A stretch of 64,000 nt of DNA from Amoebophrya sp. A120 (Eukaryota; Protista; Dinoflagellata). Position 1 is the stretch's first letter. Each line of letters opens with the position of its first letter. The DNA is taken from positions 9,865,979-9,929,978 of the forward strand of contig CAJINV010000003.1 of the NCBI GenBank assembly GCA_905178155.1, written 5' to 3'. A program made the position numbers and the translations under genes. The notes beneath the pieces are model-generated. The model ran no database searches. It saw only the letters and a list, made by a program, of their open reading frames with translations, and had not been told where the DNA came from. Below are positions 33,851 through 64,000 of this stretch, piece by piece.

Positions 33851-34321
33851 TCTGCGAAGCGAAAGTGCGAAGACGAACCACACAGAGAAGACTCAATACC
33901 AGTTGAGAACAAAACCCACAGGGATGTAGTAGGTTTCTCCTTTAGGGATCGCCGTACTGATGAGGCTAATCCCCTAACTACTGGGCAGATTCTTAGCGTT
34001 CACGGTGTGCAATATAACCCAAGGCCTGTACGTATTTGGGTCGTACGTGATTCGAGTCATCAAGGTGGTCACTTTTGGGGTCATTTTGGTGGTTGACTCC
34101 CGTCAGGTTCGTCCCTATGTCTGGACTAGGTCAGGGGCCTAGTTAGGTCGTATTTAGCTACTTGACTCTGGTCAGGTTTGGCACCAAGTACCGGGATCAT
34201 TTAGGTCATTGCTTTCCTTGTGCTTCCTTCAGGATCTCTCTCAAGATTGTAAAGGCAATTTATTGGATCACTGGACAGGAGTGAATCTACGCTGCGCGTG
34301 GTTCATCATTTATTCGTCATA
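33851..34321 (-). repeat. Copia 5' LTR
   Basis: Direct repeat of 26761-27231. Confidence 0.95.
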
Positions 34322-42410: not shown

Positions 42411-42600
42411 GGTTCTTTTGGTGGCCAGACCACCCCAAAAGAGCCACCAGCTGTTTCCCCAAAGGAACCATTGGTTCCCACAGTACTGTGGGAACCACTG
42501 GTTCTTTTGCTGAAACAACTGGTGGTTCTTTTAGGGGGCGGATCGAAGGCGTTTCCGAGTCAACTCGGAAACGCCTTCGATCCGCCCCCTAAAAGAACCA
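42411..42600. repeat. Cluster of three adjacent hairpins, including a perfect 38-bp stem
   Basis: 42523-42560/42563-42600 perfect IR. 42472-42497 perfect palindrome inside a longer imperfect stem. 42411-42445 short stem. Confidence 0.9.
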
Positions 42601-42639
42601 GTTAATGCAACGCGTCCCCCGACGTCAAACCTAGATCCC

Positions 42640-43115
42640 GTGCGAACATGCAGTACAAATCTGCCTGAAGGACGATTTGCGCTGCACGTTCGCACGGGAT
42701 CGCCGCACTTGCAGTGCAAATCTGCAATGCAGATCTGCACTTTGTGCTGCACGTTCGCACGGGATCGCCGCACTTGCAGTGCAAATCTGCAATGCAGATC
42801 TGCAGTGCAGATCTGCAATGCAAATCCGCACTGCAAATCTGCAATGCAAATCTGCAATGCAAATCTGCATTGCAAATTTGCACTGCAGTGCAAATTTGCA
42901 ATGCAGACTTGCAATGCAGACTTGCAATGCAAATTTACAATGCAAATTCGCAATGCAAATTTGCAATGCAAATTTGCAACGCGCGTCCGGCTTTGCAATG
43001 CAAGTCGAGTTTGCAATGCAAGTCCGAAGCTCAGGTCTGGGCCTACATTGAAAATTTCCAATGCAGCATTGCAAATTTGCAATGCGTATCGGATGCGCAT
43101 TGCAAATTTGCAATG
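42640..43115. repeat. 12-bp minisatellite (AATYTGCAATGC)n with a duplicated ~75-bp higher-order unit at the left
   Basis: Periodic LQIC/NLQC translations. GCTGCACGTTCGCACGGGATCGCCGCACTTGCAGTGCAAATCTGCAATGCAGATCTGCA occurs twice. Confidence 0.9.
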
Positions 43116-43945
43116 CGGGGGGCGCGGAAAGCCGTGGCACAAACCGCACCGCGGACCTGCGGGCCGCGCAGCGAACTGCCCCGGCGGGGGACGAAATAGC
43201 AAAGCGCTGCCCCCGCCCCCCCTTTGAATCCGCATTCAATGGGGGCGCGGGGGGCGGGCGCAAAACTGGCAGCGCCGAACTGGCCTGCATGGCTGCGGCA
43301 AATAGCAACAAAGCACCGCGGCCCCGGCCGGGCGCGGCCTGGCTTCGTGGCGCGCCGCCCGTAGGCTTTCGCAGCTTTCGAGCGGCTTTTGCCGCAGATT
43401 CAACGGGGGCGCGGGGGGAGGGCGCAGAGCCCCAGCGCCCCAAATTCTGCCTCGGCTTAGCCTGAAGAGGCGCCGGGGGCTCGCCTAGCTGCCCTAGACG
43501 AGTTTTCCCCTAGCGCCGCGCCTAGCAGCCGCAGGCGCGCCCGGGCTTCTGGATAGGCAAACCCAAAAGAATGCGGCGCCGCAGGGGGCGCCAGGAAAGC
43601 TCCACCGGCCGCGGCGCCGCCTCGCCCGGGGGCGGGCGGCGATTGCAAAAAGCGCAGGCCCATCGGGCCATGACTAGTATTGATTTACCTTAGTTCAATA
43701 CTAGGGCGCCCCGCCCGCCAAGGGCCCCCAAGGCGCGCCCCAAGTTTGCCAGCAAAATTCTTCCGATTTTGCTGAAGGATTCCGCCTCTTCCGCCTGCTA
43801 GCTTCGCAAGGTCGCGAAGCTGGAAAGCCCGGCCCCCCAGGCCTGCAGGGGAAGAAAACAGGAAGGGCGCGGGGGCCCGTTCTTTCGCTTTCAGAAGTTG
43901 CGGGCCCGGGGCTTTCAGCTCTTCGAGCTTTGGAGCAAGCCGGGA

Positions 43946-44331
43946 TCCAAAACCCACGAACAGGTGGGCAGAAAGAACACCAAAGCCCGGAGGTCGCGAT
44001 CGAATCGCGACCGCGTTGTTGCTTCTTCTCATTCTTTTCCTTTTCTCATTTCCAAAATCCTAAACAGGTTCATGTCGAAATCCGCATTGATTCTTGCATT
44101 GCAAGCATGGCCTCCTGGGGAGACAAACACCCCTTCACCGATGGCAAAGAGCCATCACAGCGCCCCGAACAGCGCAAATACTCTCAGAAACACTCTCAAA
44201 ACCTCAGCAAACACAAGCAAAGCCCTCAACCTCCTCCAAAACCCTCGCAAGCCTCGAAGCCTCGGCGCCGTAACCCAGCGAATGCAGCGGAAGGTTGGAA
44301 CGAATGGCACGAACACACCACAGCCTCCGGA
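43946..44331 (-). repeat. 3' LTR (about 386 bp, element strand TCC...GGA)
   Basis: Matches 47449-47800. The inner boundary is inferred from the adjacent PPT GAGGGGGAG. Confidence 0.8.
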
Positions 44332-44996
44332 CTCCCCCTCGAATTTCCGGAAAGCGTAGCGCCCGGAATTCGAAACGCCTTGCAGCTGCTGAAGAGGAGA
44401 GAAATGCTCCCCGCTAGCACATTTCCGTGTGTAGCGCCGCGAAGTTGTATCGCAAACACCGCTCCCGAGCGCACTTTCGGGGGTGGCCGTTTCCCGATAA
44501 GTGCTGCTGCTGAAAGCACTAACATTCCCCGTCACCGATCCGTTCTGCAGAACCCCGTAAAAATCCACGCCGTTTATTCATTTTCGTATGTCCACCGCAA
44601 TCCTGATTTGCAAATCCCCAGTCGTAAGTGTCGTTCTTTCCCTCGCGCCGCGACCTTGGGCCGCAAATCCCCGTCACCGCAGTCTTGAACTGCACATGCC
44701 CCGAGTACTGCAAGATGTTGTTTGAATACTGCCCGACATGTATAAAGAAACCGCTGCACAGAAGATGAAGATGAAGTTAGTAGCCGCGCCGAACACGAAG
44801 TCAATCTTTTTCGAACTCGAAACAGGTAGTAGAGAGACTTCTTGTAGTTTCGAAATAAAATTGCATCTGTAGACCAAAAAAGCGTAGTGATGATTTTCGC
44901 AACACAAACTGAAACCGTCCGCCACTGGAAGGCGCGAAGAGGTAGTTCTCGAAAATCTAAAATATAGTCGACGTTTGCTGTTTTTCCCGTTTGCAC

Positions 44997-47405
44997 CTAG
45001 AAGGAGTCCAACGCGTCCTCGAAGAACCCAAACCCGTTGGAACCAGAAGAAGACTCGCTGCACCGTCCCAGGCTTTTGCCCGAAGATCTGCTCGATCCGG
45101 AGGAGGAAGCAGGACCGGAAAGCACTGCATTGTAGCCAGTGCAAAAACTACTCTTCGCCGCCTGCATGTCCAGCATCTGACTGATGCGCCGCACCTCCCC
45201 CGCATCCTGGATCACCTTCCCGCCGCAGTAGATCGGTCCCGCACTGTTGCTGTTCCCGGATCGACAAACCGCCGGCCCGAAGTAGTGAAATCCCGGCTGC
45301 TGGTTTTGCATAGTCGGTCGTCCGGTTTGCATGGAAGGGTGGATAAGACTGCTGGTGGGGGGCATCACTGGTTGCTGCTGCACAACCTGTCGCGCCAGCG
45401 AAGGAGGAACACTCGGCCCCGCAGTTTGCATCACCCCGCCCGCAGCGAGACTGTTGTAGCCCGGTACCGCGGTGTTGCCCCGCGGACCAATCGCAGCCGG
45501 CACGATGCCGCCAAACTGCGAGTTTCCCTGCGCGCCCGTCGGTCCCGTCGGCATCTGCAGCTGCGCGTAGCCCGCCGGCTGCATCGGAAATCCGTACTGC
45601 TGGTTCCCGCAAGACAGGTCACTGCACTGCGGCATCAACTGCTGCTGCAGCTGCTGCTGCGCTCCCCCGGTAGGGACGCCGGAATGGGCTGGGTCGATCT
45701 GGTTCGCGCTTCCGGACGGAATTGTCGGCCCCGAAAGGTTGTAGCCCGTCTTGCCAGTTCCCTTCCCGCCTCCGCCCGTTGCCCGGCCTGCCTTCTGCTC
45801 GCACCGCAGGCAGGACTTGCGCGACTTGAAGTTGACGAACCCGCACACGGAGCAATCCCAGTCGCCCGGCTTGCGGCCGAACTTCCCGACCGTGGCATTA
45901 CTGCCCGCGCCTGCCGCTGAGACCTCCAGCATCTTCTTTCGCAAAAATGCCTTGTCCTGCACGATGGACATCTTTCTCTCTGCGATGACCTTCTGTGCCT
46001 CCGCAGAGGTCCCGAACTCGTAAGCCGGGCCGAAGAAGCACTTCTCCGGGTTGGAGTGCTCCTTCCCGCACCACCCGCACAGCGGGATCATCGCGCTGGG
46101 GTCCCGGTTCACGCCGGTGTTGCGCAAGTCGTCGCCCGCGCCCGTACCAGTGAAAGCGTACACAGGGTCCCTGTTGCTCTCCCCCGACGCCAGGAACCGC
46201 GTGAACTTGTCCGCAGCGTCGTCCTGCTCTCCGACCGTCTTCGGCTCCTCCAACCGTTTCCGCGCGTAGTCGTCCAGCGCGTCCAGGTAGTCGCCGAAGG
46301 TCGTAGCGTCGCTGGTGTGGTGGCTAAGCCAGTCGCAAGCCTTCTGCCCCGACCACGTTGCCATCATTCTGAAAAAACGACGGGTCTCCCCCGCGCTGTT
46401 CTTGCTGTCCTGCAGCGACCAGTGGATGGTCGTCCGCTTGCTGGCGCTGTTCACCAGGTTCCGGATCCGCTCCGTGACGTAGTACACCGCCGCATGGTTC
46501 TCGACCCAGCGACCGCCAACCCGCTCCAGCAAGCTAGCGCAAAGGTAGTCGAGGTCCTGCGCCCCGCGCGCCAGGTTGATGCTAAACTTTTTGTTGATGC
46601 GCTGCAGCAAGAGGTCGACGCAGGCCTGGGCCTCCACGCCCGTTGTCGCGGCGTGGTCCTCGTCGATCCCGCTCCACATCTCCAACCCGAGCCCGCAAAG
46701 CAGCCCGGAAAGCGCTTGCCAGAAGGTCCGCCGGCTAGTCACCCCGGCGCGGTTCATGATCCACTCGATGCTGCGCCACTCCGTGGCCACTGTGCTCCGC
46801 TTGCTCAAGCTGAACTGCACGCCCTTGCCGATGTCCTGGTGGATTTTCTCCTGCAGAGGCGACGAAGGCCCCGCCCCTGCCGCAAGTCTTGACCCTCCTG
46901 CCGCAGGCTGCTGTTGCGGAGATGCAACGGACTGGAAGCTGTGCCCGCCCGCAGAAGTAACTTCCGCACCCGCAGCGACCATCTGCGTATCGGCGGCTGT
47001 CCCATTGGTGTCCATCCCGGTGTAGGCAAAACTCGGCCCCGGCGCCGATGCTATCCCCGCGACCGTAGGCCCCGCAAAGGCTGCCCCGCCTGCCAGAAGT
47101 CGCTCCAGCTCCGCATTGCGCGCCGCCAGGTTTTGGTTAGTCTGCTCCATCGCCAGCAGGCGCTGCTCCAGGTTGGTCACCGCGCCCTCGGTGATGTTCT
47201 GCGTCCGCGCGACCTCACCCGCAACGGCCCGAAACCCCATGCCTGTGGCCTGCATGACACCGGTCGCCAAGTTCAGGCCCTCGCTCCGCAGCAGATGCTC
47301 CCCCGCGGCCCGGTCCGCATTGGAAGTTCTGCGCGGCGAGTAGCTCCGCGTCCTCAGGTGGTCCGGCGAGTCCAGCAACTCGTCGGGATAGGAGGAGTAG
47401 GACAT
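44997..47405 (-). CDS. Gag-like protein, 802 aa: coiled coil, variant CCHC knuckle, RanBP2-type zinc finger, Q/P/G-rich tail
   Basis: LEQRLLAMEQTNQNLAARNAELERLL. CGWCGKEHSNPEKC. KPGDWDCSVCGFVNFKSRKSCLRC (W-x-C-x2-C-x3-N-x6-C-x2-C). Confidence 0.85.
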   Translation of the reverse strand: MSYSSYPDELLDSPDHLRTRSYSPRRTSNADRAAGEHLLRSEGLNLATGVMQATGMGFRAVAGEVARTQNITEGAVTNLEQRLLAMEQTNQNLAARNAELERLLAGGAAFAGPTVAGIASAPGPSFAYTGMDTNGTAADTQMVAAGAEVTSAGGHSFQSVASPQQQPAAGGSRLAAGAGPSSPLQEKIHQDIGKGVQFSLSKRSTVATEWRSIEWIMNRAGVTSRRTFWQALSGLLCGLGLEMWSGIDEDHAATTGVEAQACVDLLLQRINKKFSINLARGAQDLDYLCASLLERVGGRWVENHAAVYYVTERIRNLVNSASKRTTIHWSLQDSKNSAGETRRFFRMMATWSGQKACDWLSHHTSDATTFGDYLDALDDYARKRLEEPKTVGEQDDAADKFTRFLASGESNRDPVYAFTGTGAGDDLRNTGVNRDPSAMIPLCGWCGKEHSNPEKCFFGPAYEFGTSAEAQKVIAERKMSIVQDKAFLRKKMLEVSAAGAGSNATVGKFGRKPGDWDCSVCGFVNFKSRKSCLRCEQKAGRATGGGGKGTGKTGYNLSGPTIPSGSANQIDPAHSGVPTGGAQQQLQQQLMPQCSDLSCGNQQYGFPMQPAGYAQLQMPTGPTGAQGNSQFGGIVPAAIGPRGNTAVPGYNSLAAGGVMQTAGPSVPPSLARQVVQQQPVMPPTSSLIHPSMQTGRPTMQNQQPGFHYFGPAVCRSGNSNSAGPIYCGGKVIQDAGEVRRISQMLDMQAAKSSFCTGYNAVLSGPASSSGSSRSSGKSLGRCSESSSGSNGFGFFEDALDSF

Positions 47406-47435
47406 CCTCCCCGCGGTCTGTCTAGCAGGGTAGCG

Positions 47436-47448
47436 CTGGGCTCATAAC
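47436..47448 (-). promoter_or_regulatory. Primer-binding site GTTATGAGCCCAG (half-tRNAiMet type)
   Basis: Directly after the 5' LTR. Same core as 33840-33850. Confidence 0.85.
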
Positions 47449-47800
47449 TCCAAAACCCACGAACAGGCGGGCAGAAAGAACACCAAAGCCCGGAGGTCGC
47501 GATCGAATCGCGACCGCGTTGTTGCTTCTTCTCATTCTTTTCCTTTTCTCATTTCCAAAATCCTAAACAGGTTCATGTCGAAATCCGCATTGATTCTTGC
47601 ATTGCAAGCATGGCCTCCTGGGGAGACAAACACCCCTTCACCGATGGCAAAGAGCCATCACAGCGCCCCGAACAGCGCAAATACTCTCAGAAACACTCTC
47701 AAAACCTCAGCAAACACAAGCAAAGCCCTCAACCTCCTCCAAAACCCTCGCAAGCCTCGAAGCCTCGGCGCCGTAACCCAGCGAATGCAGCGGAAGGTTG
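47449..47800 (-). repeat. 5' LTR (partial)
   Basis: Direct repeat of 43946-44297. Confidence 0.9.
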
Positions 47801-48622: not shown

Positions 48623-51600
48623 GGGCTACTGCTACTGCTGTAGCAGTAGTGGTTTCGGGGCTGTTTTTTTTTCACTTTTTTCGCGAAAAAATCGCGCCCG
48701 CGCGCGATTTTTCCGCGGAAAAGGGGCCGCCGATCCGCGCAAGAAGGGCCGCCGTCGCCTCCGGGCGGGCCGCCGATTCTCGGAGTGCCCCAAGGTGGTT
48801 CCTGGGTTGCTCCAGGATGCGTCGGGGCTGGGTATTCGAGACCGGAACCCCTTAAAGGGCCCCCGGGCGGCTCGCGCAGTGCCCCAAGAGCCTTGCGGGG
48901 GAAGCGAGCGCCACTCTTTCCCCCAAGGGGCCCTCCGGCGTATTCCCGCACGGCCCCTGCGGCTCCCGGGCTGTTCGGGGGCCGATTTGTGACGCAAAAG
49001 GGCGGCCCCGGCGGCTTCAGATCCGGCGCGAAGCATGCAGCCTCGCGCGGGATCTGAAGGCGCCCGGAACGAAGCCAAAAAGCAAGCCGGCCTCCGATGG
49101 CCCTTCTGAATGAGAAACCAGCCGCAGACGCGGCACAGCCCTGCCGCCAATCCCGCGGGGCCCCTGTACCAATGAAGGCGGCACTGGTGTCGCTTTGTGC
49201 GCCCCCTGCAAGCGCGTAGCCACATTGGTACAGGGGCCCCGCGGGATTGGCGGCACCGCCCTCCTTCCGCTCCGCGGGGCCGCCAGAAGGGGAGCGCGGC
49301 CCGCCGCGTCCGCCAGCTCCGCAACGAACTCGGCTTCTTTGGGCCAATACGTTTCCGCGCGGCCTGCCGCGCCCGCCAGTTCCGCGACGCATTGGCTTAC
49401 CGTAAGCCAACACGTCGTCGCGCGGCAAGCGCTCCGCGCCGCGTCCGCCTTTCCCGCGACGTATTGGGTTGCCGTAAGCCAATACGTCGGCGCGAGGCAA
49501 GCGCGCCAAGCCGCGCCCGCCAGTTCCGCGACGTATTGGGCTACCGTAAGCCAAAACGTCGTCGCGCGGCAAGCGCTCCGCGCCGCGTCCGCCTGCCCTA
49601 CGACGTACTGGGGCACCGTACGCCAATACGTCGGCGCGAGGCAAGCGCGTCAAGCCGCGCCCGCCAGCTCCGCGACGTATTGGGTTACCGTAAGCCAATA
49701 CGTCGTCGCGCGGCGGGCGCTTCAAGCCGCGCCCGCCAGTTCCGCGACGTATTGGGCTACCGTAAGCCAATACGTTGTCGCGCGGCAAGCGCGCCAAGCC
49801 GCGCCCGCCCGCCTCGCGCCGAGTTGGGCTACCGTAGGCGCACACGTCGCCGAGCACAGCAAGGCGAGCAGCCCCCAACTGCCGCGGGGCGCATTGGCCT
49901 AGCGGAGGCCACTTCGCTGCCGCCCGGCAAGCGTGGCAAGCAGCATCCGACAGCCCCGCCACCTGCGAGCATTGCGAGGGCCGCTGCGCGCTCCGTAGCG
50001 TATTCGGCTGGCGCTGGTCAACGCGCGGACGAGTTGGCACAGCCTCGGTTTCCCGTTTGCCGTCGGTGCCGCCATGCTGCCGCCATCGCTGCCGCCACCC
50101 CGTTTGGCGGCACTTCAGCACGAGCCAACTCCGCACTTTCGCCACTGCCGCCATACCAAAAAAATAAAAAGACTAATATTTAAATATTAGTCTTTTTATC
50201 TTTTTTCGATGGCGGCAGTGGCAAAGTCGCAGCGTCAGGTCGTGGTAAGGTGCCGCCAAACGTGGTGGCGGCAGCGTTGGCGGCAGCTTGGCGGCAGTCG
50301 TTTTGGAGCGATGGCGACGGCGAAAAACTGCCTCCCGCCAGCAGCCGTGGCGAGGTTGGCGAGCAAGACCGCCAGTTGGCGGCCCGCGCGATAAGTTTCG
50401 CTCTGGCCTGCGCCCAAGGCAGGCGACGCCCCCGCGCCAAAAAGCTGGCGCCCTTGCAAAGCTGGCGCAAAAAGCACAAGAAAAAGGCGAAAAAAAGCCA
50501 AAAAAAAACCTGAACCGCTACAACCATAAAAACCCGAACCGCATCACTGGAGCAAGCAGAACTGTTTGCTTCAGTGATGCTTCGGGCTACTGCTACTGCT
50601 GTAGCAGTAGTGGTTTCGGGGCTGTTTTTTTTTCACTTTTTTCGCGAAAAAATCGCGCCCGCGCGCGATTTTTCCGCGGAAAAGGGGCCGCCGATCCGCG
50701 CAAGAAGGGCCGCCGTCGCCTCCGGGCGGGCCGCCGATTCTCGGAGTGCCCCAAGGTGGTTCCTGGGTTGCTCCAGGATGCGTCGGGGCTGGGTATTCGA
50801 GACCGGAACCCCTTAAAGGGCCCCCGGGCGGCTCGCGCAGTGCCCCAAGAGCCTTGCGGGGGAAGCGAGCGCCACTCTTTCCCCCAAGGGGCCCTCCGGC
50901 GTATTCCCGCACGGCCCCTGCGGCTCCCGGGCTGTTCGGGGGCCGATTTGTGACGCAAAAGGGCGGCCCCGGCGGCTTCAGATCCGGCGCGAAGCATGCA
51001 GCCTCGCGCGGGATCTGAAGGCGCCCGGAACGAAGCCAAAAAGCAAGCCGGCCTCCGATGGCCCTTCTGAATGAGAAACCAGCCGCAGACGCGGCACAGC
51101 CCTGCCGCCAATCCCGCGGGGCCCCTGTACCAATGAAGGCGGCGCTGGTGTCGCTTTGTGCGCCCCCTGCAAGCGCGTAGCCACATTGGTACAGGGGCCC
51201 CGCGGGATTGGCGGCACCGCCCTCCTTCCGCTCCGCGGGGCCGCCAGAAGGGGAGCGCGGCCCGCCGCGTCCGCCAGCTCCGCAACGAACTCGGCTTCTT
51301 TGGGCCAATACGTTTCCGCGCGGCCTGCCGCGCCCGCCAGTTCCGCGACGTATTGGCTTACCGTAAGCCAACACGTCGTCGCGCGGCAAGCGCTCCGCGC
51401 CGCGTCCGCCTTTCCCGCGACGTATTGGGTTGCCGTAAGCCAATACGTCGGCGCGAGGCAAGCGCGCCAAGCCGCGCCCGCCAGTTCCGCGACGTATTGG
51501 GCTACCGTAAGCCAAAACGTCGTCGCGCGGCAAGCGCTCCGCGCCGCGTCCGCCTGCCCTACGACGTACTGGGGCACCGTACGCCAATACGTCGGCGCGA

Positions 51601-53187
51601 GGCAAGCGCGTCAAGCCGCGCCCGCCAGCTCCGCGACGTATTGGGTTACCGTAAGCCAATACGTCGTCGCGCGGCGGGCGCTTCAAGCCGCGCCCGCCAG
51701 TTCCGCGACGTATTGGGCTACCGTAAGCCAATACGTTGTCGCGCGGCAAGCGCGCCAAGCCGCGCCCGCCCGCCTCGCGCCGAGTTGGGCTACCGTAGGC
51801 GCACACGTCGCCGAGCACAGCAAGGCGAGCAGCCCCCAACTGCCGCGGGGCGCATTGGCCTAGCGGAGGCCACTTCGCTGCCGCCCGGCAAGCGTGGCAA
51901 GCAGCATCCGACAGCCCCGCCACCTGCGAGCATTGCGAGGGCCGCTGCGCGCTCCGTAGCGTATTCGGCTGGCGCTGGTCAACGCGCGGACGAGTTGGCA
52001 CAGCCTCGGTTTCCCGTTTGCCGTCGGTGCCGCCATGCTGCCGCCATCGCTGCCGCCACCCCGTTTGGCGGCACTTCAGCACGAGCCAACTCCGCACTTT
52101 CGCCACTGCCGCCATACCAAAAAGATAAAAAGACTAATATTTAAATATTAGTCTTTTTATCTTTTTTCGATGGCGGCAGTGGCAAAGTCGCAGCGTCAGG
52201 TCGTGGTAAGGTGCCGCCAAACGTGGTGGCGGCAGCGTTGGCGGCAGCTTGGCGGCAGTCGTTTTGGAGCGATGGCGACGGCGAAAAACTGCCTCCCGCC
52301 AGCAGCCGTGGCGAGGTTGGCGAGCAAGACCGCCAGTTGGCGGCCCGCGCGATAAGTTTCGCTCTGGCCTGCGCCCAAGGCAGGCGACGCCCCCGCGCCA
52401 AAAAGCTGGCGCCCTTGCAAAGCTGGCGCAAAAAGCACAAGAAAAAGGCGAAAAAAAGCCAAAAAAAAACCTGAACCGCTACAACCATAAAAACCCGAAC
52501 CGCATCACTGGAGCAAGCAGAACTGTTTGCTTCAGTGATGCTTCGGGCTACTGCTACTGCTGTAGCAGTAGTGGTTTCGGGGCTGTTTTTTTTTCACTTT
52601 TTTCGCGAAAAAATCGCGCCCGCGCGCGATTTTTCCGCGGAAAAGGGGCCGCCGATCCGCGCAAGAAGGGCCGCCGTCGCCTCCGGGCGGGCCGCCGATT
52701 CTCGGAGTGCCCCAAGGTGGTTCCTGGGTTGCTCCAGGATGCGTCGGGGCTGGGTATTCGAGACCGGAACCCCTTAAAGGGCCCCCGGGCGGCTCGCGCA
52801 GTGCCCCAAGAGCCTTGCGGGGGAAGCGAGCGCCACTCTTTCCCCCAAGGGGCCCTCCGGCGTATTCCCGCACGGCCCCTGCGGCTCCCGGGCTGTTCGG
52901 GGGCCGATTTGTGACGCAAAAGGGCGGCCCCGGCGGCTTCAGATCCGGCGCGAAGCATGCAGCCTCGCGCGGGATCTGAAGGCGCCCGGAACGAAGCCAA
53001 AAAGCAAGCCGGCCTCCGATGGCCCTTCTGAATGAGAAACCAGCCGCAGACGCGGCACAGCCCTGCCGCCAATCCCGCGGGGCCCCTGTACCAATGAAGG
53101 CGGCGCTGGTGTCGCTTTGTGCGCCCCCTGCAAGCGCGTAGCCACATTGGTACAGGGGCCCCGCGGGATTGGCGGCACCGCCCTCCT
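48623..53187. repeat. Tandem array of a 1961-bp unit (at least 2.3 near-identical copies)
   Basis: GGGCTACTGCTACTGCTGTAGC at 48623, 50584 and 52545 (spacing 1961). Only a few substitutions between copies. Confidence 0.97.
49310..49850. repeat. About seven 72-bp hairpin-forming sub-repeats within each 1961-bp unit (again at about 51271-51811)
   Basis: CGACGTATTGG-gctaccgtaag-CCAATACGTCG core. 24-aa periodic translation. Confidence 0.9.
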
Positions 53188-54660
53188 CCTTCGAGCAATC
53201 GGCCGTAGTTGTTCCCTCCCTCGACCCGCTTGCTTTGCATAAGAAGTTCGCTAGTCCGGTCGAGCGTGTGGCCGGAACCCCAGAAGCGGTCCCCTTCCGC
53301 GGCCTCGTACAAATCAGCATTTCCAGTCGCGAGCAGTCGGTCGCAGTCATGGGCGTTCACGTCGGGGTCGAAACGCGCGTTGATCGCCGCGGTCATCATA
53401 CGAATTGACAGCGCGATGGACTTTTCGATCTTCGCCGATCGTGACAGTTTCTTCATCTCTACTGGATTCTTCGCACTCATGATTTTGAGGACCAAGTCGT
53501 GACGTCGAGCTACTCTGCACTGCTGCATCTGATATGCTTGCTCAATGCAAGAACAGTCGCACCCGTCCAGTTGGAACTTGCACTTGTAGAACGGACTCAG
53601 AAACCCGTGCTCCCCCTTGGTGCCGCGAAAAACGAGATGTCCGTCCGCGGCGTCGACTTGGTCGATTCGGGGTGACTGGTCAGTCGGCTGAAGATGGCCG
53701 TCCTCGTCCTGGTAGAATTCCGGACTCGAGTCAATTTCGTACTCGCGTGTGAGACGCTCGTGCTTGCCATCCACAACCTCGCACAAGGGCCCATACCCAA
53801 AGAGTTGGTCGTGAAGCCGGCTCCCTTCCTTCCAGTAGTCACGCGGCTCGCTCGTCGAACTGCCCGGATCGTCTTGATCGGCACCTGGCAAGAACGTCAC
53901 CTCGTGCCAGATCCCGCGACGATCACGTTGAAAACGGCCGGTCTTGTAGATTAGTTGTACTCCGCCTTCAGTGTTCCGGTCGTGGTGCGAGCACGCGTCA
54001 TGCCAGCCCTCGTCCTCAAAGAAGACGCGTCGAACTCCCATGATCCAGTCGTCTGGTCCGGGCCCTTTCCCGAGTTCCGTGGAAATACCGTGGCTTCCCC
54101 GGCGTGCCACCCGGAGTTCGGCTGGGTGATTCTGGAATACTAGCTTGACGAATTCAGCACTTGCGATGTTGACGACCGGCACGATAAAAGTGGCCTCCTC
54201 GACCGAACAGCTCACGGCTGCCAAGTACGTGTTCCCGTGGCACAGGTCGGGCGCGCATCCACAGACGAGCGCTTTGCCCCGAACTTGTCGTCTTGCCTGG
54301 GCGAGCAGTCCGGTGCGCGCGGCGAAATGCGTGAAGTGGTGGACAGACTCCGCAGTCGGAAATCCTCGAGCTGCGCTGTACGGGTTGCCCCACTGTCCGA
54401 CCTTGTATCGACGGATGTCCACGTACTTCGGGTCGTTCTGCCAGCCCTTGGGCGCGTCTCGTAAATTGATCAACTTCGCAGGTTCCCATGTGAGCTTCTC
54501 CTCCAGCTTCTTCGCCGTGTCGCAATAGCTGTCGACTTTGTCGTATTCGTCGAGCCACTTGTGTTTCACGAGCCGATCCCACACGTCCTTCGGAATTCCA
54601 CACATCAGAGGCTGCCCTCCCCGCACCCCGTCGCGAAGGCGTTGAAATTCCCGCGCGAGT
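53188..54660 (-). CDS. Polyprotein segment: DUF4326-like domain plus NADAR (YbiA-like) domain, truncated by the tandem array
   Basis: DUF4326: YVDIRR..QWGNPY..RGKALVCGCAPDLCHGN. NADAR: GFLSPFY..IEQAYQ..P..MKKLSR..M....ARF..LLATG...LYEA..DRFWGSG..GGNNYGRLL. Confidence 0.82.
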
Positions 54661-55507
54661 TCAGCCCGCCGGGGCCTGGCAATCTTTTCCAGTATCCGGC
54701 CCGGTTTTTTCCCGTAAAGTTTTTTTGCGCGGACCCTGGGGGCCCGAACGAAAGCAGGCCCCGAGCGCGCTCTGGCGCGGGTGTTTCCATGATGCGGCCC
54801 CGCAGGCGGGATGGTCCGGCCCCCGGGATCCCGAATAAACGGGGTCGGGCATGCCAAGACCATCCGCTGTTTTCCCGCCGTAAATTTCCCGCACATTCCG
54901 TGTCGATTCCCCGTAAGTCCCCCCGTAAATCCCCGACGAAAACCCCGATCGACCTCATATAGCACCAAAAAAATCAAAATTTTTATCCCGTAAATCCGCC
55001 GTAAATCCCTGGTAAGTTCCATGGTAAATTCCCTGGTAAATTCTCTGGCAAATTCCCCGTAAATTTTTTCACAGTGAAATCGCACACGATTTCACGTGAC
55101 AAAATTTACGTGGAATTTCCGTGGAATTTACGTGGAAATTTACGTGGAATTTACGTGGAATTTACGGGGTGCTTTACGTGGAATTTACGGGGATTTTTTT
55201 TGGGTGTTTACGTGGCAACTTACGGGGAATTTACGGGGAATCTTGGGGGGGTGGGAACTGCGGACCCGCCTTCGCGGTCCGAGAAAAGCCGGAAGTGGCC
55301 AGCGCCCGCGCGGGCCGCTGCGCAGGCCTGCCACAGTCCTGGCAGGAGGCTGAACCACGCGGCGCCACGGGAGGGCGCCTCCGCGCTAGCCTCACAAAGC
55401 CGAACAAACCACGGCACCAACGCAGCCCCGGCCGCATGCAAAAAAAAAATTTACGGGAAAAACCCGGCAGATTCCCGGCGGCTTTTTGCCAGGGCCTGGC
55501 GGGCTGA
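54661..55507. mobile_element. 847-bp foldback MITE/introner with ~70-bp TIRs and GCGAGT target duplication
   Basis: Ends TCAGCCCGCC.GG.CCTGGCAA..TTTTCCCGTAAA inverted. GCGAGT at 54655-54660 and 55508-55513. Internal 11-bp TTTACGTGGAA arrays in opposite orientations around a central hairpin (55074-55095). Confidence 0.9.
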
Positions 55508-58500
55508 GCGAGTTGAGCGGCCCATCGTAACAGCGCCTCCTCTCTTTCGGCCTCCGGTGGAATCCACGCGTGGCAGTCGGCCGCCGGCAGTCCAAGTTCA
55601 ACGACTCGTAGGAGTTCTTCGTACAGGTGCAATCCGATGCGGAGTTGGTTGCACAGGTACTCAGTGTACCAAGTATCGTCGATGTCGTTGCCATTCCACC
55701 ACCCCGCCTCCTCAGCCCGGACGGCCGCCTGAAACCTGGGGTGCATTGAGTCCGGTATTTTGGTTCCATCACAGGGCCGCCGTTCCCGCGTCATGCCTTG
55801 CAGCCCGACAATGTGCTGGATCTTGCTCGGTTCCTCGGTCGACTCCTTGGGGTGGTCAGCACGCGTTTCCTCCGCCTCGACGACCGAGTCCGCGTCAACG
55901 GTTTGCACGGCTGCCGACGTCGTTGTCTTGCTTTCCACGGCCGCTGGTCCCGAGTCCGCATCCGCAGTCGAGTTCATCGTCGTCCCAACCGAGTCGTCAG
56001 CGCCGCCCTGAGGTTCCGCATTGCGTGGTGGAAATAACTGCAATTCGTCATCCGTGATAGCCAAGGCCGCCTGGAGCGGGGCGATGCTTTCTCGATGCGG
56101 CAGGATCGTAAACGTCTCTCCCTCTTCCTTGCGATACTTCAGATAATTGATCAGCGGCCGGATGATGTAACGAACGTCCATCGGGACGCTACTGTTGTAC
56201 GTGAACTGCCGCCCGAGCTCCGGCCGCACTGTGTCGTCGACGAGGCACAGCCGGTTTAACACCGTTTCACAGTACTCCTGGTCAGCCTTCACCAGCGGCG
56301 ACGGCGGCGTGACCGTACTCCCGTTGTTCCCGACCACTCGCTGGAGTGCGTCTTCGGCGTAAAAGCCCTGTGCAAATGCGGCTGTGGCATAGCCAAGGGC
56401 TGACAGCATGTTCCCGGCAAGCTCCAACGGTAGAGCGGTAATGCCCATCATCCGCACAGGTTGCGCTTGCTCATCCGGTTTGGCCGCAGGGTCAGGAGTG
56501 GGGTCAAACTTGATCTCATATACCTTGCTGCGCTCATGGAGCTGGGTAGCGATGTTGGGCAAGTGCGCGAGAAGCCGCACGCTGAGCGGATCCGTGGCTT
56601 TCTCGTTGTCGTAGTCTTTTCCCAGATCGTGTGGATAAGACGCCCCCGACGGCAACGTGGGTGTGACGTCTGCGACCGTGATATAGCACTTGGCGGCGGG
56701 GAAGTACTTGCGGATCGAACCGCTCGTCGGCGGCATCAACGCGAGCTGGTTCAGAAAGCAGAGATCTCCCTCGATGATGTTTCCCCGCGTGTTCCCGCTG
56801 GTGCGCGACATGTACTCGGTCTTGTCCCCCAGACCGTATGATGTTCCGTTGTACGGCAGATTCCCCTGGTCGACGTTGTGGACAAAATGCTGCGCCAGTT
56901 TGCCTGCTTTCGTGTAGTAGAAGGGCTGGTAGTCACAGTAGCCGTCCTGCTCCGTGCCGACCGTCATCGACGTGGTGGCCCGCCACACGTGGACCATACT
57001 TTTTACAGGCGTGAGCACTTCAGCGAACCGCCGGCACGCGTCATTCAGCCGTTCTCGCAACTTGTCATGCAGTAGCGCATCTCCGACTTTCCCACCGGCG
57101 AGGAACACCGAGTTGAAAAACGTTCCGGTGTCAACGAGTCGTAGCCGGTGTCGGGGTTGGGTGCGGTATTCTTGTAAGAGCGTGCACATTTGCCCGCCCG
57201 TCAAGTCGGCCTCTTCGGGAATCGTGATGATCCACCGCCAATCCGCCATACAGTCCTCCTCCGTGGGATGGGCCTCGCGTGGCACAAACCTGGACCCCTT
57301 GGTGGCTTTCTTTGGCGACCCGCTCTCGGCGGCGTCAGCGCCGACTTCCCCGATGGTTCCGCAGTCCTCGGTCCAGAGTGCGATTTTGCGTACCACCCCG
57401 CTACACGGCTGCAGATGCGGCGGCAGCTCCTTGACGAGCATGCTCAGCACTCGACTCTTGAAGACCCGCTGCAGGAAATCGCGTTGCGTGCAGGCGGTCT
57501 TGTTCGCGTAGCCGCGCTCGCACATCTGCTGTTCATTGTTCACGTCGAGGTCGGTGGCCCACTGACCCTCTCGCCAGAACTCGGACAGGAACTCGTCGTC
57601 GTGCTCCGTGCAGCCAAGTCGCCACTCGTCGTCGTCCCCGGCCGCAAACCGTCTGGGTTGTTTTGAAAAATTTTCAACCCCCTCAGCCTGGGGAGTTGGC
57701 ATGTTGATGCACCACGTGGATGGAGATGTGAACCCTAGTCCATAATCGATGATAGCTGATTCGATGCCGGACAGCCTGGGAATGCTGCGCTCCTCCGTTG
57801 TGTAGTTGACGTCGATGAAGATGTTTTCGGCGATGGAGCGCGGACGATCCTCTTTGATACTGTGCTGGCAGACTCGCAGACCAACCTCCCTCAGGAAAGA
57901 AGTGTTGGCCAATTCCACGTCGGGGACTAGTTCGAGACAGCGGCCTCGGAGGAGTACAACAAGGCACAGATCGACAGGCTCCGATCTGCGCTGGCGTCCA
58001 AGGTCTGGATCAGCAGCAAAATCAGAATAACACTGTTGTTGCGGCTCCCGGTACTCGGGCGGGTTGATGTAGCCGAGTAATTCGAACTCGTTGCGCACGA
58101 CGGTTTGCAAGAAGCGTCGGGCCAGCGCCGCGACGGACGGCGGTGCCTCGTCTAGCGGGTCAAGCGGAGGGTCAAAGTAGATGAACTCCCGCACACAGCC
58201 GGGGCACGTCATTCGGAGTTGGTCGTCGGTTGCGTGCGCGCGACATGTTGGACACGGGGTAATGTTCGCTACGGCAGACAAACCGTACGGAATTTCGAAC
58301 TCCCATGGCCGTGGAATGCTGATGCGATTGCCGCCGTTTGCGTGTCGTTTCTCGGGAACGAGCATCAGGTGGACTCGCAGAGGCGTAGTCGGGGTCTGCT
58401 CGTAATGCGGAATGCCCAGTGCTCGGGCACATTGCTGCAAGCTGGCCACACTGCGTCGCGTTTCCAGCGGCAGGCTGCGCACGTTTTCACGTATACGCAT

Positions 58501-59985
58501 GAGTGACCGTAACTCCAGTTCGGCGCTCTCGTCACGCGGAGCCACAGAGTGTTCGAGTGCAAGAACAGCAGGCTCGAACTCGAAGAACTTGGGATCATAG
58601 TGTGGTTGATCGTCCGGCTCGCCTGGTGGAGCCGGCTCCGGCGGTAGCCCGACTGGCTGTTGGAGATCCGCAAGTCTGCGGTCGCGCTTTGCCTCCTCGC
58701 GGTCCGTGGTGAGTTCTTCTACGCATGCATGCGTGTGCAGAACATTGGGGGTGGCCTTCTCGGATGGGATGACGTGAGCGCCCGCGTACTTGAGGCTGTC
58801 GACGGGCTCGCCGTAATACAGATTGCGCTGCCGACGCACGAATGTTTTGTCTCCGAGAAAGATGTCCGCGGTCAGCAGCTCGTCCGCTGGAAATGAATGC
58901 CGTGTTTTGACCATCTGCTGGAAACGAAACCGCGTCAACACCGGATCCGCGCCCGAAAAGATGTTGATGACCTGCCGAGCCATGCTTGGGGAGCGATCCT
59001 GACACGCTTTGCACCCAGTCACGAGATTGTGAGTACGGCGGGGATGCGGCAAACCAGCCGACTTCGTGAGAAGCGTTGCCACGCGTTTCAGTGCAGTCTC
59101 GAACACGTTAGTTCGCAGCTCGGGGCGATCCGAATTGAACTGGATTGGCACAACGTAGCACCGGTCGTTGTCCTCTGGCGTTTCCTCCTTTGGGGCCAGC
59201 TGGGGCGCGCAGCATACGTAGAACGTACTGGTGGCGGTTCCCTGCCAGTCAAACTTGAATTCTGCGGAAGCGATATACAGTGCGACTGGGTATGACGTCG
59301 TGACGTGTAGCGTGCCTACATGCGTCGCTCCGTGAATCGACGAAGCGGACGCCCCGCACTCAAATCGACTGGGAATGGCCATCGCACTGGGTCGATGCAC
59401 GTCGAGTTTGGTGCCCATCATGTACGCATCTACCCGCTTGACGATAGCAGACTCCGCCATGTCAGCTTCGAGTTCGGCGGCCGACTTGGATCGTTTGTGC
59501 TCCGCCGTTTTTTGCGGCAGTCCGGTTTGCCTTGACTTGAACACCGTCGTCAACTGCGTAATGTCGTCTAGGTCGTTCAGCTGCATGACTACGCTCTCGT
59601 CGCGGTGCAGCGCACGCGCCAGTAGACTGTCGGAGTCCTTGCATGAATCGTACCACGACTGGGAGATTAGTATCACGAGCAATTCCTCCGGCCGACTGAA
59701 AAGGGAGGTGGCTCGCTCTCGATGAACGAACCCTGTGTCGCGACTCGCGGCCATCGTGGCAAAGACAATGCGGGCGTCTTGGCCTTGGAACTCGTCCACC
59801 GTACTGCTCTGCCGCACCGTCTTGAGGTTAGACGTTAGTTCTGCTTTCTGCAGCTTGTACGGAGTCAGCGCCACCACGTCGTCCACGTGTTCGTCAATGT
59901 GGTCAGCTCGCCTGGTCTGCAGAAAGTCAATTATCTTGCCGGCGGCCTCCACTTCGTTCCTTGTAGTGCACGTGGTTACTGTTCT
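55508..59985 (-). CDS. Polyprotein segment: SF1 helicase RecA2 domain, possible degenerate exonuclease, aspartic-protease-like motif
   Basis: NEVEA, VVALTPYKLQ, STVDEFQGQD, RATSLFSRP (Upf1-like motifs IV-VI). LVDTG at 57124-57138 and NIIEGDLCFL. Confidence 0.8.
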
Positions 59986-61834
59986 CTAGTTTCGGCACAG
60001 GGATCACCACCACTGGGCTGTCGTAGTGCTGGAAGGAGTTTCTCGGACCCCGATTCTGCAGCTTGTGGTCGTGCGCCTCGTTGAACAAAGCCACGTGCCC
60101 GTCGCAGGACCGGTGCACGGAAACCAGCATCACGTCGACCGGTCGCTCCGTGCTTGTGGCCTGCGCGACCCCGTAGCCTCTGGCTTTCTCAAACGGTGGT
60201 AGTTGGTTCTTGTCCCCCTGTTGACTTGACAATGCCCCAGTCTTGTTCAGCTTGGCGATGGCAATGTTGTACTCGAGTTCGCACAATTTCCAGGCCTCGT
60301 CGATGATCTGCCGCACGATCGAGACCCGCTCGGGGATACTGGCTGCTGAGTTCGCGGTGGAGAAGATGACGTCCGCGCAGCATGAAATGATGACTATGGC
60401 CATGACGATCAGGATCGAGCGTGTCTTGCGCAGCGACGCGAGCATCTCTTGCTCCGACCGGCTGGACCCAGTTTTCTGCTGTGACTTGATTTGCGCCCGT
60501 AGCTCCGCAGTGGCTTTGTCGATCTTGTTGATGGAGCCGAAACACGACCAGGGCATGACTTTTCCGAGGTACTTGATCTGCTGATTGATCTCCGCATTCA
60601 CCGCTGCCCCTCCTCCAGCCAGCGCCTGCCGTACGGATGCAATCCACGTCAACGCGAGCAGCCGAGCGTCGATCCGGAGTATGAGGTCGATGATCGGCGC
60701 GTTGCCTCCAGCGCACATGTGCGTCCGCTCGAACTCGCGTTCACAGTTGCGGACTGCGAGCGCCTGCATTGTCGTGACAGCCGTGATCGCCGTGGTTTTG
60801 CCGGCTCCAGGCGGTCCGGTGATGCGGGGCAACGGAAACTCATCTTCCTTAACTCTTTGTAACATCAAGGCGGCTGCAATGCGTTGCTCCTTGTTCAGCG
60901 TCGCAAGGGGTTTCTTGGTGGCGTCAGACAGACTCTCCAACTGCTCGACCGCTACGGAGACGTTCTCATGGCCGGTACCTGCAAGGTGGTACGGCAATAC
61001 AGGGTGTTGCAGAAGCTTGGTCAGCGCTTCTACTTGTCGATCGTACATGGTTTCGGGCTCGAGAATTCCCCCTTGCACTTCGTACGTTTTCCCCGTTTCA
61101 TACCCCAGCTCCCTCAATGACTGCAGGAACGGGCACGCGGGCATGCCGGCCCGACTGGGCATCGAGTACACCTTGTGCGTCCCGCCACCATCAAGTGGCA
61201 GTTGAAGAAAAAGTAGCGACCGTCCGAGCTGCGGCGGCACGGCAAGTCCGTTTTTCTTGTTGACCCACACGACGCCGCACGGTTCACCGTCGACTGATTC
61301 GAGCGCGCTGACGCTGATGGACAACGGCGCTATCTCTCGACCGCAATTTTCGTTCCGCGTCGCGTGCCGTTCAATGTAGGACAGTTGCTCCATGTGCTGG
61401 AGGTAGCGACGTGGATCTTGACGAATGAGTGCAGAAGGTCCGAGCTTGATTGGATCTGCAGGAGCTTTGTAGATGGTCGTCTCGACTTGCTCGACGAAAC
61501 CGGCACCGATTTCGTAGGCTCCTCCGAGAAGATTGTCGTGTAATACTGATGCGACGTGTGCGTCCTCGGTGCCTTCGGGCACGTGAAGACTGCAGTGCCC
61601 CACCTCGTCGCTAGAAGTGAGATGTACGCGCACCCAGCCGCTCTCCGGCGCGTCGTCAGGGACGCACGACGGACGACTGACTGCATCAAAATAGATCAGT
61701 TCTTCTTCGATCGTTAAGACTTCTTCGTAGTGTTCGTAATTGTCCCGGCGAGTAGTTTCTTCTGTAAGTATTGCAGTCTTGCTGGTTCGAATGTGACTGC
61801 TCCGCACTACCCTTATAGCCGTGTTGATTCGAAT
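59927..61834 (-). CDS. Polyprotein segment: Upf1-like SF1 helicase RecA1 domain
   Basis: LNKEQ (Q motif), ITGPPGAGKTT, GGNAPI, VIFST, IIDEA, GDKNQLPP, LVSVHRS. Confidence 0.88.
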   Translation of the reverse strand: MRINTAIRVVRSSHIRTSKTAILTEETTRRDNYEHYEEVLTIEEELIYFDAVSRPSCVPDDAPESGWVRVHLTSSDEVGHCSLHVPEGTEDAHVASVLHDNLLGGAYEIGAGFVEQVETTIYKAPADPIKLGPSALIRQDPRRYLQHMEQLSYIERHATRNENCGREIAPLSISVSALESVDGEPCGVVWVNKKNGLAVPPQLGRSLLFLQLPLDGGGTHKVYSMPSRAGMPACPFLQSLRELGYETGKTYEVQGGILEPETMYDRQVEALTKLLQHPVLPYHLAGTGHENVSVAVEQLESLSDATKKPLATLNKEQRIAAALMLQRVKEDEFPLPRITGPPGAGKTTAITAVTTMQALAVRNCEREFERTHMCAGGNAPIIDLILRIDARLLALTWIASVRQALAGGGAAVNAEINQQIKYLGKVMPWSCFGSINKIDKATAELRAQIKSQQKTGSSRSEQEMLASLRKTRSILIVMAIVIISCCADVIFSTANSAASIPERVSIVRQIIDEAWKLCELEYNIAIAKLNKTGALSSQQGDKNQLPPFEKARGYGVAQATSTERPVDVMLVSVHRSCDGHVALFNEAHDHKLQNRGPRNSFQHYDSPVVVIPVPKLENSNHVHYKERSGGRRQDN

Positions 61835-64000
61835 CTACCGTCTTACACACAGTCGCCACTTGTGAGACTGCGTTGCGAACGGAAAATTTGACGCCGGCAG
61901 CTCGGTGTTTTGATGCGACTTGTTCTGGGCACGACTAGATCCCTGCGTGAGCCCGCTGCTCGGCCGCTCATTTGGAGTTGAATTGTAGTTGTTACCGGAA
62001 CTGGAACCAGGACTGGAGTCGTTGCCGTTGCCGGCGGAGCCACCTCCACGCCAGTTGCTGTCGGACTCGGCACGGTTCCCGCCAGACGCGCTCTTGCTGC
62101 CGCCCCCCTGGTTGTTGCTCCAGCCTCCGCTGTTCCACTTGTTGTTGTTGTTGTAGCCCTTCCATTTGGTGTTCTGCTCTTGCTTTGGAGCGACAACTTC
62201 ACGGCTCTTTCCTCCGGCGAAAGTCTCCGGCGAGAGGTGCGATAGCGTGATCTTGTTCTTCTTGCCGGCATCGATCAGTTGCTTCGTCACTTGCGCCTTC
62301 TCCAATGCCCTCGACGGACCGCCGTAGCGGATCGCGCACTTGTCGCACCAGAACGCGCCGCTATCGGCGGTTGCACTCGCGGGGAAGTTCTGCTCATGCG
62401 TGCGCGTGTCCTTATGCGTCTTCTCGATTATTTCATTGAGGGTCGCGCTCTCCAAACCAGCAAAGCGCTGATCGCCCGCCTTGGCACGACTTTGTATGTG
62501 GAGCACTGCTTCCCGTTGCAACGCGTGCCACTCCTGATTCTCCACCGTGTGCTTCACATCCTCCCACCGCAAACCCGCTAATTCGCACGCCCGTTCGCAC
62601 CAGAACTGGACGAGTTCCTTGAGGTTCTTGAAGCCGGAGGCCACGTGTTGGTGAACGCAGTAGATGCCATACGGGCACGCAGAGCAATTTTTCCACTTTG
62701 ATTCTCCATTCCACATCATTGCTCCTAATCCGAGAAAATCGAGGAAACATGCCGCCCAATGATTACGTCCGCGAAAGGTCCCGCGCATCGTCGTAATCGT
62801 AATCACTGCTTCGCCACGCTCATTCAAGCGAAGTTCGTACGCAAACTTGGCTTGTTTCCATTCTTCTTTCACAGTGCCATCGGGGTTTTTGTACGTCATC
62901 GCGCTGCTTGCAACATGCGGATCTTTGGGGAACTCAACCCGGAGTTCGCCGATGCGGCCGTTGCCGTAGTCCACCTGCAGTTCGTACACGGAGCCGGTCA
63001 GACCCTTGGCGCCGAAGGCTGCTTCGTCATCTTTGGAGACCGGAAACGGAGAGCCCGGATTCTCCTTGTTCAGGTACAGCTCCGTGTCGGGGGTGGGCTT
63101 GTTGTGCTCCATGATGTGGTGTGTGCCGGAGGTCTCGAATCCTGGAGCTATGGATTCGCACTGCCCCACCTCGTAGCAGCACGGCGCACCGAACTCCCCC
63201 ACGTAGTCCTCGGCATCATTTCCTTTGGCAGGCGCCGGGGGTGGTGGTCCACCCGGCTTGATGCAGCGCGACTGCGTCACAGTGCCAACCCCACTGGTCA
63301 ACACGATCGAAGCGCCCGCGCCACGCTGTTGACCGTATGGTGCGTGCGGCGGGTCCGTGCTAGCCTCGAGTACACCATCTCCATATTTTCCAGTCGGCGG
63401 CGTCCACTTGTTGCTCCACTTCACGGAGCCACCGTTACCACCCGTGGCACTGCTCTTGGGGTTTTCGGTGGGACTGTTCTTGGTAGACCCCCAGGTCGAC
63501 GGCTTGCCCGGAGAGGGTTTTGGTACGGTGCTTAGTGCGGCTGCCGGCGTTCCACGCTTGCTGCGCAACTCGTCGACTTGATTCATCAACTTTGTTAATT
63601 CCGTTTTACCGGAGTGCGAACGGGCCGAAGGGGGTCCGAGTTGAATGTTACTGGCGATCTGGTAAAAACTGGTATCTGTTTTGCGTTCGATCGTGCCGAT
63701 CATGTCCTCCAGCATTTGTAACGCATCAACTCGACTCTCTTCCCGCTGCATCTGGTCCACTTCGAGGGTCTCGATGATGTTTTGCGAACAGTAGTACGCG
63801 AGTTCCCACCCACGTAGGATGTGCGTTGAGCGGTGAAACCGGAACACCCGCACGCTCTCGTGGCTCTTGTACAACTTCCGGAAGTCCGTGAATCGACGGT
63901 AGAAAGCGTCCAACGTGGTTTGAAACGCTTGCTGCGCGGCTGGGTGCGCCCAGTCGTCCTCGGCCAGACGGCAGAACTTCATGTAGTGGCCGAGCACACT
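61835..64000 (-). CDS. ORF1-like protein of more than 720 aa (open at the window edge): CCCH-type zinc finger, G/S/N-rich low-complexity tail
   Basis: CSACPYGIYCVHQH, WCDKC, NNNNKWNSGGWSNNQGGG..WRGGG. Ends at a TAG in frame with the helicase ORF. Confidence 0.75.
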   Translation of the reverse strand, partial: SVLGHYMKFCRLAEDDWAHPAAQQAFQTTLDAFYRRFTDFRKLYKSHESVRVFRFHRSTHILRGWELAYYCSQNIIETLEVDQMQREESRVDALQMLEDMIGTIERKTDTSFYQIASNIQLGPPSARSHSGKTELTKLMNQVDELRSKRGTPAAALSTVPKPSPGKPSTWGSTKNSPTENPKSSATGGNGGSVKWSNKWTPPTGKYGDGVLEASTDPPHAPYGQQRGAGASIVLTSGVGTVTQSRCIKPGGPPPPAPAKGNDAEDYVGEFGAPCCYEVGQCESIAPGFETSGTHHIMEHNKPTPDTELYLNKENPGSPFPVSKDDEAAFGAKGLTGSVYELQVDYGNGRIGELRVEFPKDPHVASSAMTYKNPDGTVKEEWKQAKFAYELRLNERGEAVITITTMRGTFRGRNHWAACFLDFLGLGAMMWNGESKWKNCSACPYGIYCVHQHVASGFKNLKELVQFWCERACELAGLRWEDVKHTVENQEWHALQREAVLHIQSRAKAGDQRFAGLESATLNEIIEKTHKDTRTHEQNFPASATADSGAFWCDKCAIRYGGPSRALEKAQVTKQLIDAGKKNKITLSHLSPETFAGGKSREVVAPKQEQNTKWKGYNNNNKWNSGGWSNNQGGGSKSASGGNRAESDSNWRGGGSAGNGNDSSPGSSSGNNYNSTPNERPSSGLTQGSSRAQNKSHQNTELPASNFPFATQSHKWRLCVRR

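Follow-up and report, generated by a model that had tools for sequence, protein, structure and literature searches.

A broken helicase-DUF4326-NADAR reading frame in Amoebophrya sp. A120, probably the remnant of a giant LTR-type retroelement

What kind of gene or element would place an Upf1-like superfamily 1 (SF1) helicase, a DUF4326 domain and a NADAR domain on a single polyprotein? The question is raised by a 64,000-nt stretch of the genome of the dinoflagellate Amoebophrya sp. A120 (contig CAJINV010000003.1, positions 9,865,979 to 9,929,978; hereafter the window), which carries this combination on its minus strand. We found that the helicase-DUF4326-NADAR frame is broken three times, is truncated, and is colinear with a protein that ends in a reverse transcriptase (RT). 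From sequence comparison, we conclude that the locus is probably a dead copy of a giant, helicase-first retroelement of the long terminal repeat (LTR) type whose polymerase end has been lost.

Three breaks and a truncation in one helicase-DUF4326-NADAR frame

Four minus-strand open reading frames (ORFs; Table 1) combine into about 3,285 codons once an in-frame TAG, a +1 shift and an insertion flanked by a target duplication are passed, as an earlier note on this DNA had laid them out. The chance of such open frames, computed from base composition, is 5e-24 to 2e-8. GC content at third codon positions (GC3) is 0.696, 0.697, 0.699 and 0.692 for ORF1 to ORF4 (seven other ORFs in the window, 0.50-0.68), indicating that the four share one codon signature. 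A 17,223-nt DNA contig covers the whole stretch with 0 differences and extends about 6.4 kb past window position 64000; the breaks are therefore present in reads, and the TAG and the shift are not slips of assembly, although this contig is possibly the window's own source and hence not independent. RNA runs X4-X6 yielded 0 reads here, which says nothing about expression or splicing, since X4 also missed host genes.

Table 1. Features of the locus, in window coordinates (aa, amino acids; TIR, terminal inverted repeat; MITE, miniature inverted-repeat transposable element)
Feature	Positions	Strand	Description
ORF1, putative Gag-like	64000-61838	minus	at least 721 aa, open at window edge; atypical CCCH motif, G/N-rich tail
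ORF2	61834-59930	minus	635 aa; same frame as ORF1 beyond TAG 61837-61835
ORF3	opens at 59985	minus	+1 frame relative to ORF2
ORF4	54659-53188	minus	ends at the 1961-bp array
Candidate -1 frameshift signal	61889-61848	minus	in-phase A AAT TTT (61889-61883), 11-bp hairpin after it
Alternative: 102-nt introner-like insert holding the TAG	61872-61771	minus	4-nt direct repeat, 7-nt inverted repeat, GC 0.51
Upf1-like SF1 helicase with N-terminal region	59689-61483	minus	Pfam and P0005 match
Unnamed post-helicase domain	58858-59538	minus	common to P0004 and, via P0004, P0005
Weak candidate degenerate DEDD exonuclease-like domain	57967-58413	minus	CxxC-x12-CxxC insert
Unnamed domain with LVDTG	56512-57177	minus	about 220 aa; common to P0005 (E 4e-7)
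TIR element, non-autonomous (MITE or introner-like)	55507-54661		847 nt; imperfect TIR of about 68 nt, 6-bp target duplication
DUF4326 domain	54231-54449	minus	Pfam, 42 bits
YbiA-type NADAR	53188-53630	minus	Pfam; 8BAU E 7e-9; cut near its end by the array
Tandem array	48623-53187		1961-bp units, 99.8-99.9% identical; replaces the sequence following NADAR

The Upf1-like helicase, DUF4326 and NADAR that the earlier note had named all stood up to Pfam, with matches to AAA_11 (E 9e-11, 42.4 bits) and AAA_12 (E 1e-7, 31.8 bits; cut-off 27), to DUF4326 (E 1e-10; cut-off 25 bits) and to NADAR (E 3e-17). Helicase motifs I, II, III, V and VI lie at 60817, 60307, 60220, 59802 and 59715, the +1 shift splits the domain, and the matches extend to the IGHMBP2 family model and to no viral helicase family. 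What this copy itself shows is therefore three Pfam domains, a helicase interrupted by a +1 lesion, an inserted TIR element and, as had also been reported, truncation by the tandem array. When mapped by eye onto PDB 8BAU with a numbering offset of +2, the NADAR domain keeps most of the catalytic and ADP-ribose-binding residues: it has the equivalents of E43, K75, R79, E125, D130 and W133, with Q in place of K50 and W89 not kept; the counterpart of K50 is essential in a bacterial NADAR (PMC11543638; this and the other papers are cited from excerpts of their text).

The remainder of the frame is poor in recognizable domains. Additional Pfam scans of 28 and then of 13 shorter segments returned nothing further significant, PDB sequence searches gave no match for ORF2 or ORF3, and exact protein look-up matched one of eight window ORFs and none of the three element ORFs tried. 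ORF1 has no significant Pfam, PHROG or NCBIfam match and no match to a Gag family; of its reported features the G/N-rich tail is as described, and the CCCH motif (62686-62645) has the atypical form C-x2-C-x5-C-x3-H. An AlphaFold model of the post-helicase domain (mean predicted local distance difference test score 33) and a second model (32) were both unusable. The DEDD-like fold suspected earlier amounts to a weak hint in ORF3 aa 508-700, where a DEDDy profile gave 2/150 and 1/150 shuffles and the sister DEDDh profile 19/150 and 16/150, so that one of five profiles passes narrowly; the hhalign probability is 1%, and the stretch is unmatched in either relative described below. Two degenerate DEAH helicases in ORF3, an idea formed by eye, gained no support.

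A relative that ends in a reverse transcriptase, and the alternatives

An exhaustive search of 1,200 aa of ORF3 against 1.84 billion representative proteins yielded two proteins. The smaller, P0004 (565 aa), covers the end of the helicase plus the domain that follows it (E 2e-19). The larger, P0005, is a 4,237-aa protein located on a 21,129-nt contig, and it matches in three regions: aa 76-570 against ORF2 aa 118-611 (E 4e-26, though ORF2 lay outside the query), aa 605-703 against ORF3 aa 32-133 (E 4e-7), and a further region against ORF3 aa 942-1158 (E 4e-7), all three colinear with this locus. Compared with each other, P0004 and P0005 are similar across the post-helicase domain (E 3e-17). 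ORF3 aa 380-935 (about 550 aa), all of ORF1 and all of ORF4 are unmatched in both proteins, suggesting that accessory content varies between members. Word-index homologue searches, which covered proteins of up to 3,175 aa, found none for ORF2 (longer and near lengths) or ORF3 (near lengths), and scans of viral contigs and metagenomes found no related loci.

The RT in P0005 was detected with a profile built from 70 of 76 fetched reverse-transcribing viral loci. Motifs 5-7 scored 15.7 bits at aa 3856-3957 (E 2.8e-7 as a single comparison, 0/200 local shuffles) and motifs 2-4 scored 1.7 bits at aa 3517-3605 (0/200 shuffles), with motif spacings of 36 and 33 (the medians across 11 members are 34 and 33). 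The best position for an RNase H profile was directly downstream of the RT (aa 4106-4178, C-terminal part, 2/200 shuffles). Within P0005 aa 2000-4237, the RT is the only statistically supported domain. By eye, integrase-like acidic motifs and an HHCC-like zinc motif (about aa 2003-2029) come first, followed by VFDSG, which resembles a protease motif (aa 2839), a segment reminiscent of dUTPase (about aa 3180), RT and RNase H. This order is unlike that of Gypsy or Copia elements; in Ty3/Gypsy elements a DDE integrase normally follows RNase H. Because P0005 shares three regions in order with this locus and carries an RT, these data support the proposal, already made in the earlier note, of a very large retroelement whose polymerase was lost downstream; the note's own grounds fail or are weak, the LVDTG protease being undetected and readthrough disfavoured.

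Several results weigh against a retroelement. The RT link depends on one unannotated protein, which could be a chimeric gene model. In P0005 Pfam recognizes the helicase only: NADAR and DUF4326 give no match, RT, RNase H and integrase stay undetected even when E values of up to 1 are admitted, and PDB sequence searches returned nothing. Its RT motifs 4 and 5 are separated by 270 aa compared to the normal 29, the catalytic motif reads QVDD, and a glocal test missed the N-terminal half of the RT (65/150). Over the whole of P0005 the RNase H profile gave 11/150 and 12/200 shuffles, and an integrase profile drawn from 10 bacterial rve proteins failed to reach significance (42/150). The locus itself, of which the 5' end lies beyond the window and the 3' end is replaced by the array, yielded neither an LTR nor any sign of RT, RNase H, integrase or protease, although the RT profile also missed the RT of the window's own Copia element. 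The LVDTG motif that had been put forward as a protease is not a detectable retropepsin: three profiles built from 32 bacterial and 67 viral proteins gave z of 0.3-0.9, compared to 3.5, 1.0 and 4.2 for the window's Copia protease as a positive control, and P0005 reads LVDIG at this place. An alternative retropepsin site, FDAV at ORF2 aa 49, gained no support (z 1.8, -0.05 and 2.6; whole-element test failed, 93/150; no PDB match). Finally, the DNA run revealed no second, nearly identical copy and none splits the 17,223-nt contig, nor do the element's ORFs recur elsewhere in the 64-kb window; of the single-copy locus with syntenic host orthologues that the earlier note had set against a mobile element, the first half is, to that extent, what we found.

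This last result would fit the best-surviving alternative, which we consider unlikely: a giant host gene of RNA surveillance or defence, now a pseudogene. Introns of the introner type would then house both the TAG and the TIR element, and P0005 would be a chimeric gene model that joins a gene of similar kind to an adjacent retrotransposon. The host does splice non-canonical introns (one is skipped in a transcript-like contig; see the last section), Amoebophrya exons reach 44-80 kb (PMC7789003), and an insert at the TAG fits without a free breakpoint. Against a host gene, the RT and the three homologous regions, which are colinear with the locus, belong to a single record, and two relatives among 1.84 billion representatives are few for a conserved gene, given that the collection includes an Amoebophrya proteome. 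A reverse-transcribing element of another architecture, lacking LTRs, of tyrosine-recombinase type or pararetrovirus-like, is improbable. It is favoured by the unproven state of the integrase and LTRs, the unusual domain order of P0005 and the derivation of the RT profile from reverse-transcribing viral contigs, but the HHCC-like and integrase-like acidic motifs seen by eye in P0005 speak against it. Least probable of all is a large RNA virus, of nidovirus-like or other type, that became endogenised: the layout of ORF1, -1 slip and SF1 helicase, the weak DEDD hint and the presence of NADAR among positive-strand RNA viruses, invertebrate nidoviruses included (PMC9503650), speak for it, but no zinc-binding domain lies upstream of the helicase (ORF2 aa 1-310 contain 5 Cys, never more than 3 of them within 80 aa), the approximately 310 aa before the helicase Q motif, of which aa 118 onward align with the helicase region of P0005, leave no room for NiRAN plus RNA-dependent RNA polymerase (RdRp), no RdRp or viral-helicase Pfam match and no hit in viral contigs was obtained, and P0005 carries an RT; these marker tests largely refute the nidovirus-like alternative raised in the earlier note.

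Junctions of the frame and a proposed life cycle

P0005 begins at about the start of ORF2, which suggests that junction 1, at the TAG, is a natural boundary between ORF1 and Pol. We compared four models of this junction by codon scoring, all devised after inspecting the data, so that the odds are soft. The ORF1 frame over 61880-61770 scores -10.2 bits and resembles off-frame sequence (in-frame mean 12.5, off-frame mean -9.5), and plain readthrough of the TAG, the passage assumed in the earlier note, is accordingly disfavoured, scoring lowest of the four at 1.0 bits. A -1 frameshift scores 13.2 bits with a free breakpoint and needs a later lesion that restores the first frame. Its candidate signal is the only in-phase slippery heptamer in ORF1, 17 codons upstream of the TAG (chance of one in the last 20 ORF1 codons about 0.02); the -1 frame remains open across the TAG, and the hairpin has z = -2.05 over 45 nt and -0.98 over 60 nt. 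A 102-nt insert scores 10.6 bits without a free breakpoint; its repeat pattern recurs in 8 of 147 control windows and its GC content is equally low in 6 of 95 coding blocks. A 69-nt GT-AG intron was rejected at 8.3 bits, below both. The frameshift and the insert fit about equally, and we give even odds to a -1 ribosomal slip before the ORF1 stop that would produce a Gag-Pol fusion, with a spliced 102-nt insert containing the TAG as a possible but less favoured rival. Amoebophrya introners are described as having an 8-20-nt inverted repeat and a 3-5-nt direct repeat at their ends (PMC7789003), compared to 7 nt and 4 nt for the 102-nt segment and about 68 nt and 6 nt for the 847-nt element.

Junction 2 is a clean +1 switch near 59970-59958; helicase motif IV lies on one side and the NxxE motif on the other, and no non-coding sequence intervenes. 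We read this shift as a lesion; a small intron here was rejected because codon scores change frame without a gap. At junction 3, the 847-nt TIR element and one duplication together comprise 853 nt, which accounts for the frame offset between ORF3 and ORF4. Short look-alikes of this element occur in other DNA contigs. Each unit of the tandem array contains six 72-bp repeats, a 230-nt palindrome and a 33-bp perfect inverted pair, and the array runs for at least 2.3 copies before terminating in an 822-base gap of Ns.

If the locus is indeed a dead retroelement, an intact copy would have been transcribed as one long RNA and read as a Gag-like ORF1, with a -1 slip near its stop giving a rarer Gag-Pol fusion. 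The helicase may have unwound or remodelled the long genomic RNA, or undone double-stranded RNA that triggers silencing, and DUF4326 and NADAR, judging from their families and with one essential lysine altered, may have removed host ADP-ribose marks or signals. RT and RNase H together with a DDE integrase would have copied and pasted the element; of these, RT is seen in the relative, the RNase H signal is weak and the integrase is a by-eye assignment. In this copy the RT end was presumably lost at the point, after NADAR, where the frame runs into the array. P0005 continues for approximately 2,900 aa beyond its last domain in common with this locus; by extrapolation, a missing part like this one might have brought the complete polyprotein to more than 5,000 aa. 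A typical LTR-element Pol has 1,000-1,500 aa. Such an element would work like an LTR retrotransposon, and membership in Ty3/Gypsy is not established, as the protease at LVDTG was not detected, no LTR was found and the integrase is putative. We lean slightly towards a distinct giant reverse-transcribing lineage in which a cellular-type Upf1-like helicase opens Pol, the integrase lies far upstream of RT-RNase H, the polyprotein spans 4,000-6,000 residues and counter-defence cassettes (DUF4326-NADAR, DEDD-like) are swapped, converging on the toolkit of large RNA viruses.

Known systems and other features of the window

NADAR in a Gypsy Pol and viral-type helicases in retroelements are each known separately, and a helicase-first giant Pol is apparently undescribed: we found no paper describing it or this domain combination among open-licence full texts, judged mostly from their listings, with repeat libraries such as Repbase outside the scope. 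The nearest counterpart, the Ectocarpus element Gypsy-12_Ec32, has a NADAR in its Pol (PMC12477816). As at this locus, the NADAR is of the YbiA family and lies ahead of the expected RT site, and the RT of P0005 is likewise LTR-type; in contrast, the excerpt reports no helicase in the Ectocarpus elements, whereas here an Upf1-like helicase opens Pol, more than 2,500 aa of accessory sequence and a DUF4326 are present, and P0005 has integrase-like motifs upstream of the RT. Insect TRAS/Jockey long interspersed nuclear elements (LINEs) and Copia fusions also bear an SF1 helicase, virus-derived and proposed to counter silencing or aid replication (PMC5563155). Theirs is of the positive-strand RNA virus type, whereas the helicase here matches AAA_11, AAA_12 and IGHMBP2 and the relative's RT is LTR-type. 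The Nidovirales replicase resembles the locus in its ORF1, -1 frameshift and very long SF1-helicase polyprotein, and some nidoviruses have NADAR; its markers include a zinc-binding domain of 12 Cys/His fused upstream of HEL1 (PMC6211748), and here neither this domain nor NiRAN or RdRp was found upstream of the helicase, and the relative has an RT. Fusions of DUF4326 with NADAR, Macro or SLOG domains occur in phages and giant DNA viruses, where reversal of ADP-ribosylation is proposed (PMC9503650); as there, DUF4326 and NADAR share one chain at this locus, but within a retroelement-like polyprotein.

If the retroelement interpretation holds, the locus would represent a retroelement far above typical LTR size that had gained, in the manner of phages and large RNA viruses, an RNA helicase together with modules for ADP-ribose reversal. 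It would offer a handle on what permits genomes with an RNA intermediate to grow and point to anti-transposon defence in alveolates based on ADP-ribosylation. It would also put a name to a family whose divergence is such that even its RT escapes Pfam.

Elsewhere in the window, one ORF clusters with a protein carrying the name Amoebophrya sp. Positions 26761-34321 (minus strand) hold a Copia-type LTR retrotransposon with 471-bp LTRs 97.7% identical and with zinc knuckle, Pol_BBD and rve matches, broken into several ORFs. A second LTR-bounded element (43946-47800) has LTRs of at least 352 bp at 99.7% identity, runs into a gap of Ns and carries one 802-aa plus-strand ORF with a RanBP zinc finger and no Pol. 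A 12-nt sequence beside its right LTR is common to the Copia element and is likely a primer site, though the ORF runs in the opposite direction. The non-canonical intron mentioned above (10969-11264, 296 nt) has AT..AT ends, is left out of a transcript-like contig from run X7 and fits the non-canonical introns and introners described for Amoebophrya (PMC7789003); no terminal inverted repeat was found in it. A genome-wide repeat occupies 9313-9490, and in run X4, 36 reads match 9435-9469 directly after a sequence that we take to be a cDNA adapter, as if a motif related to 9435-9469 began many transcripts. At 42433-43130 lies a cluster of palindromes together with tandem 13-bp repeats; a perfect 38-bp inverted pair is among them.

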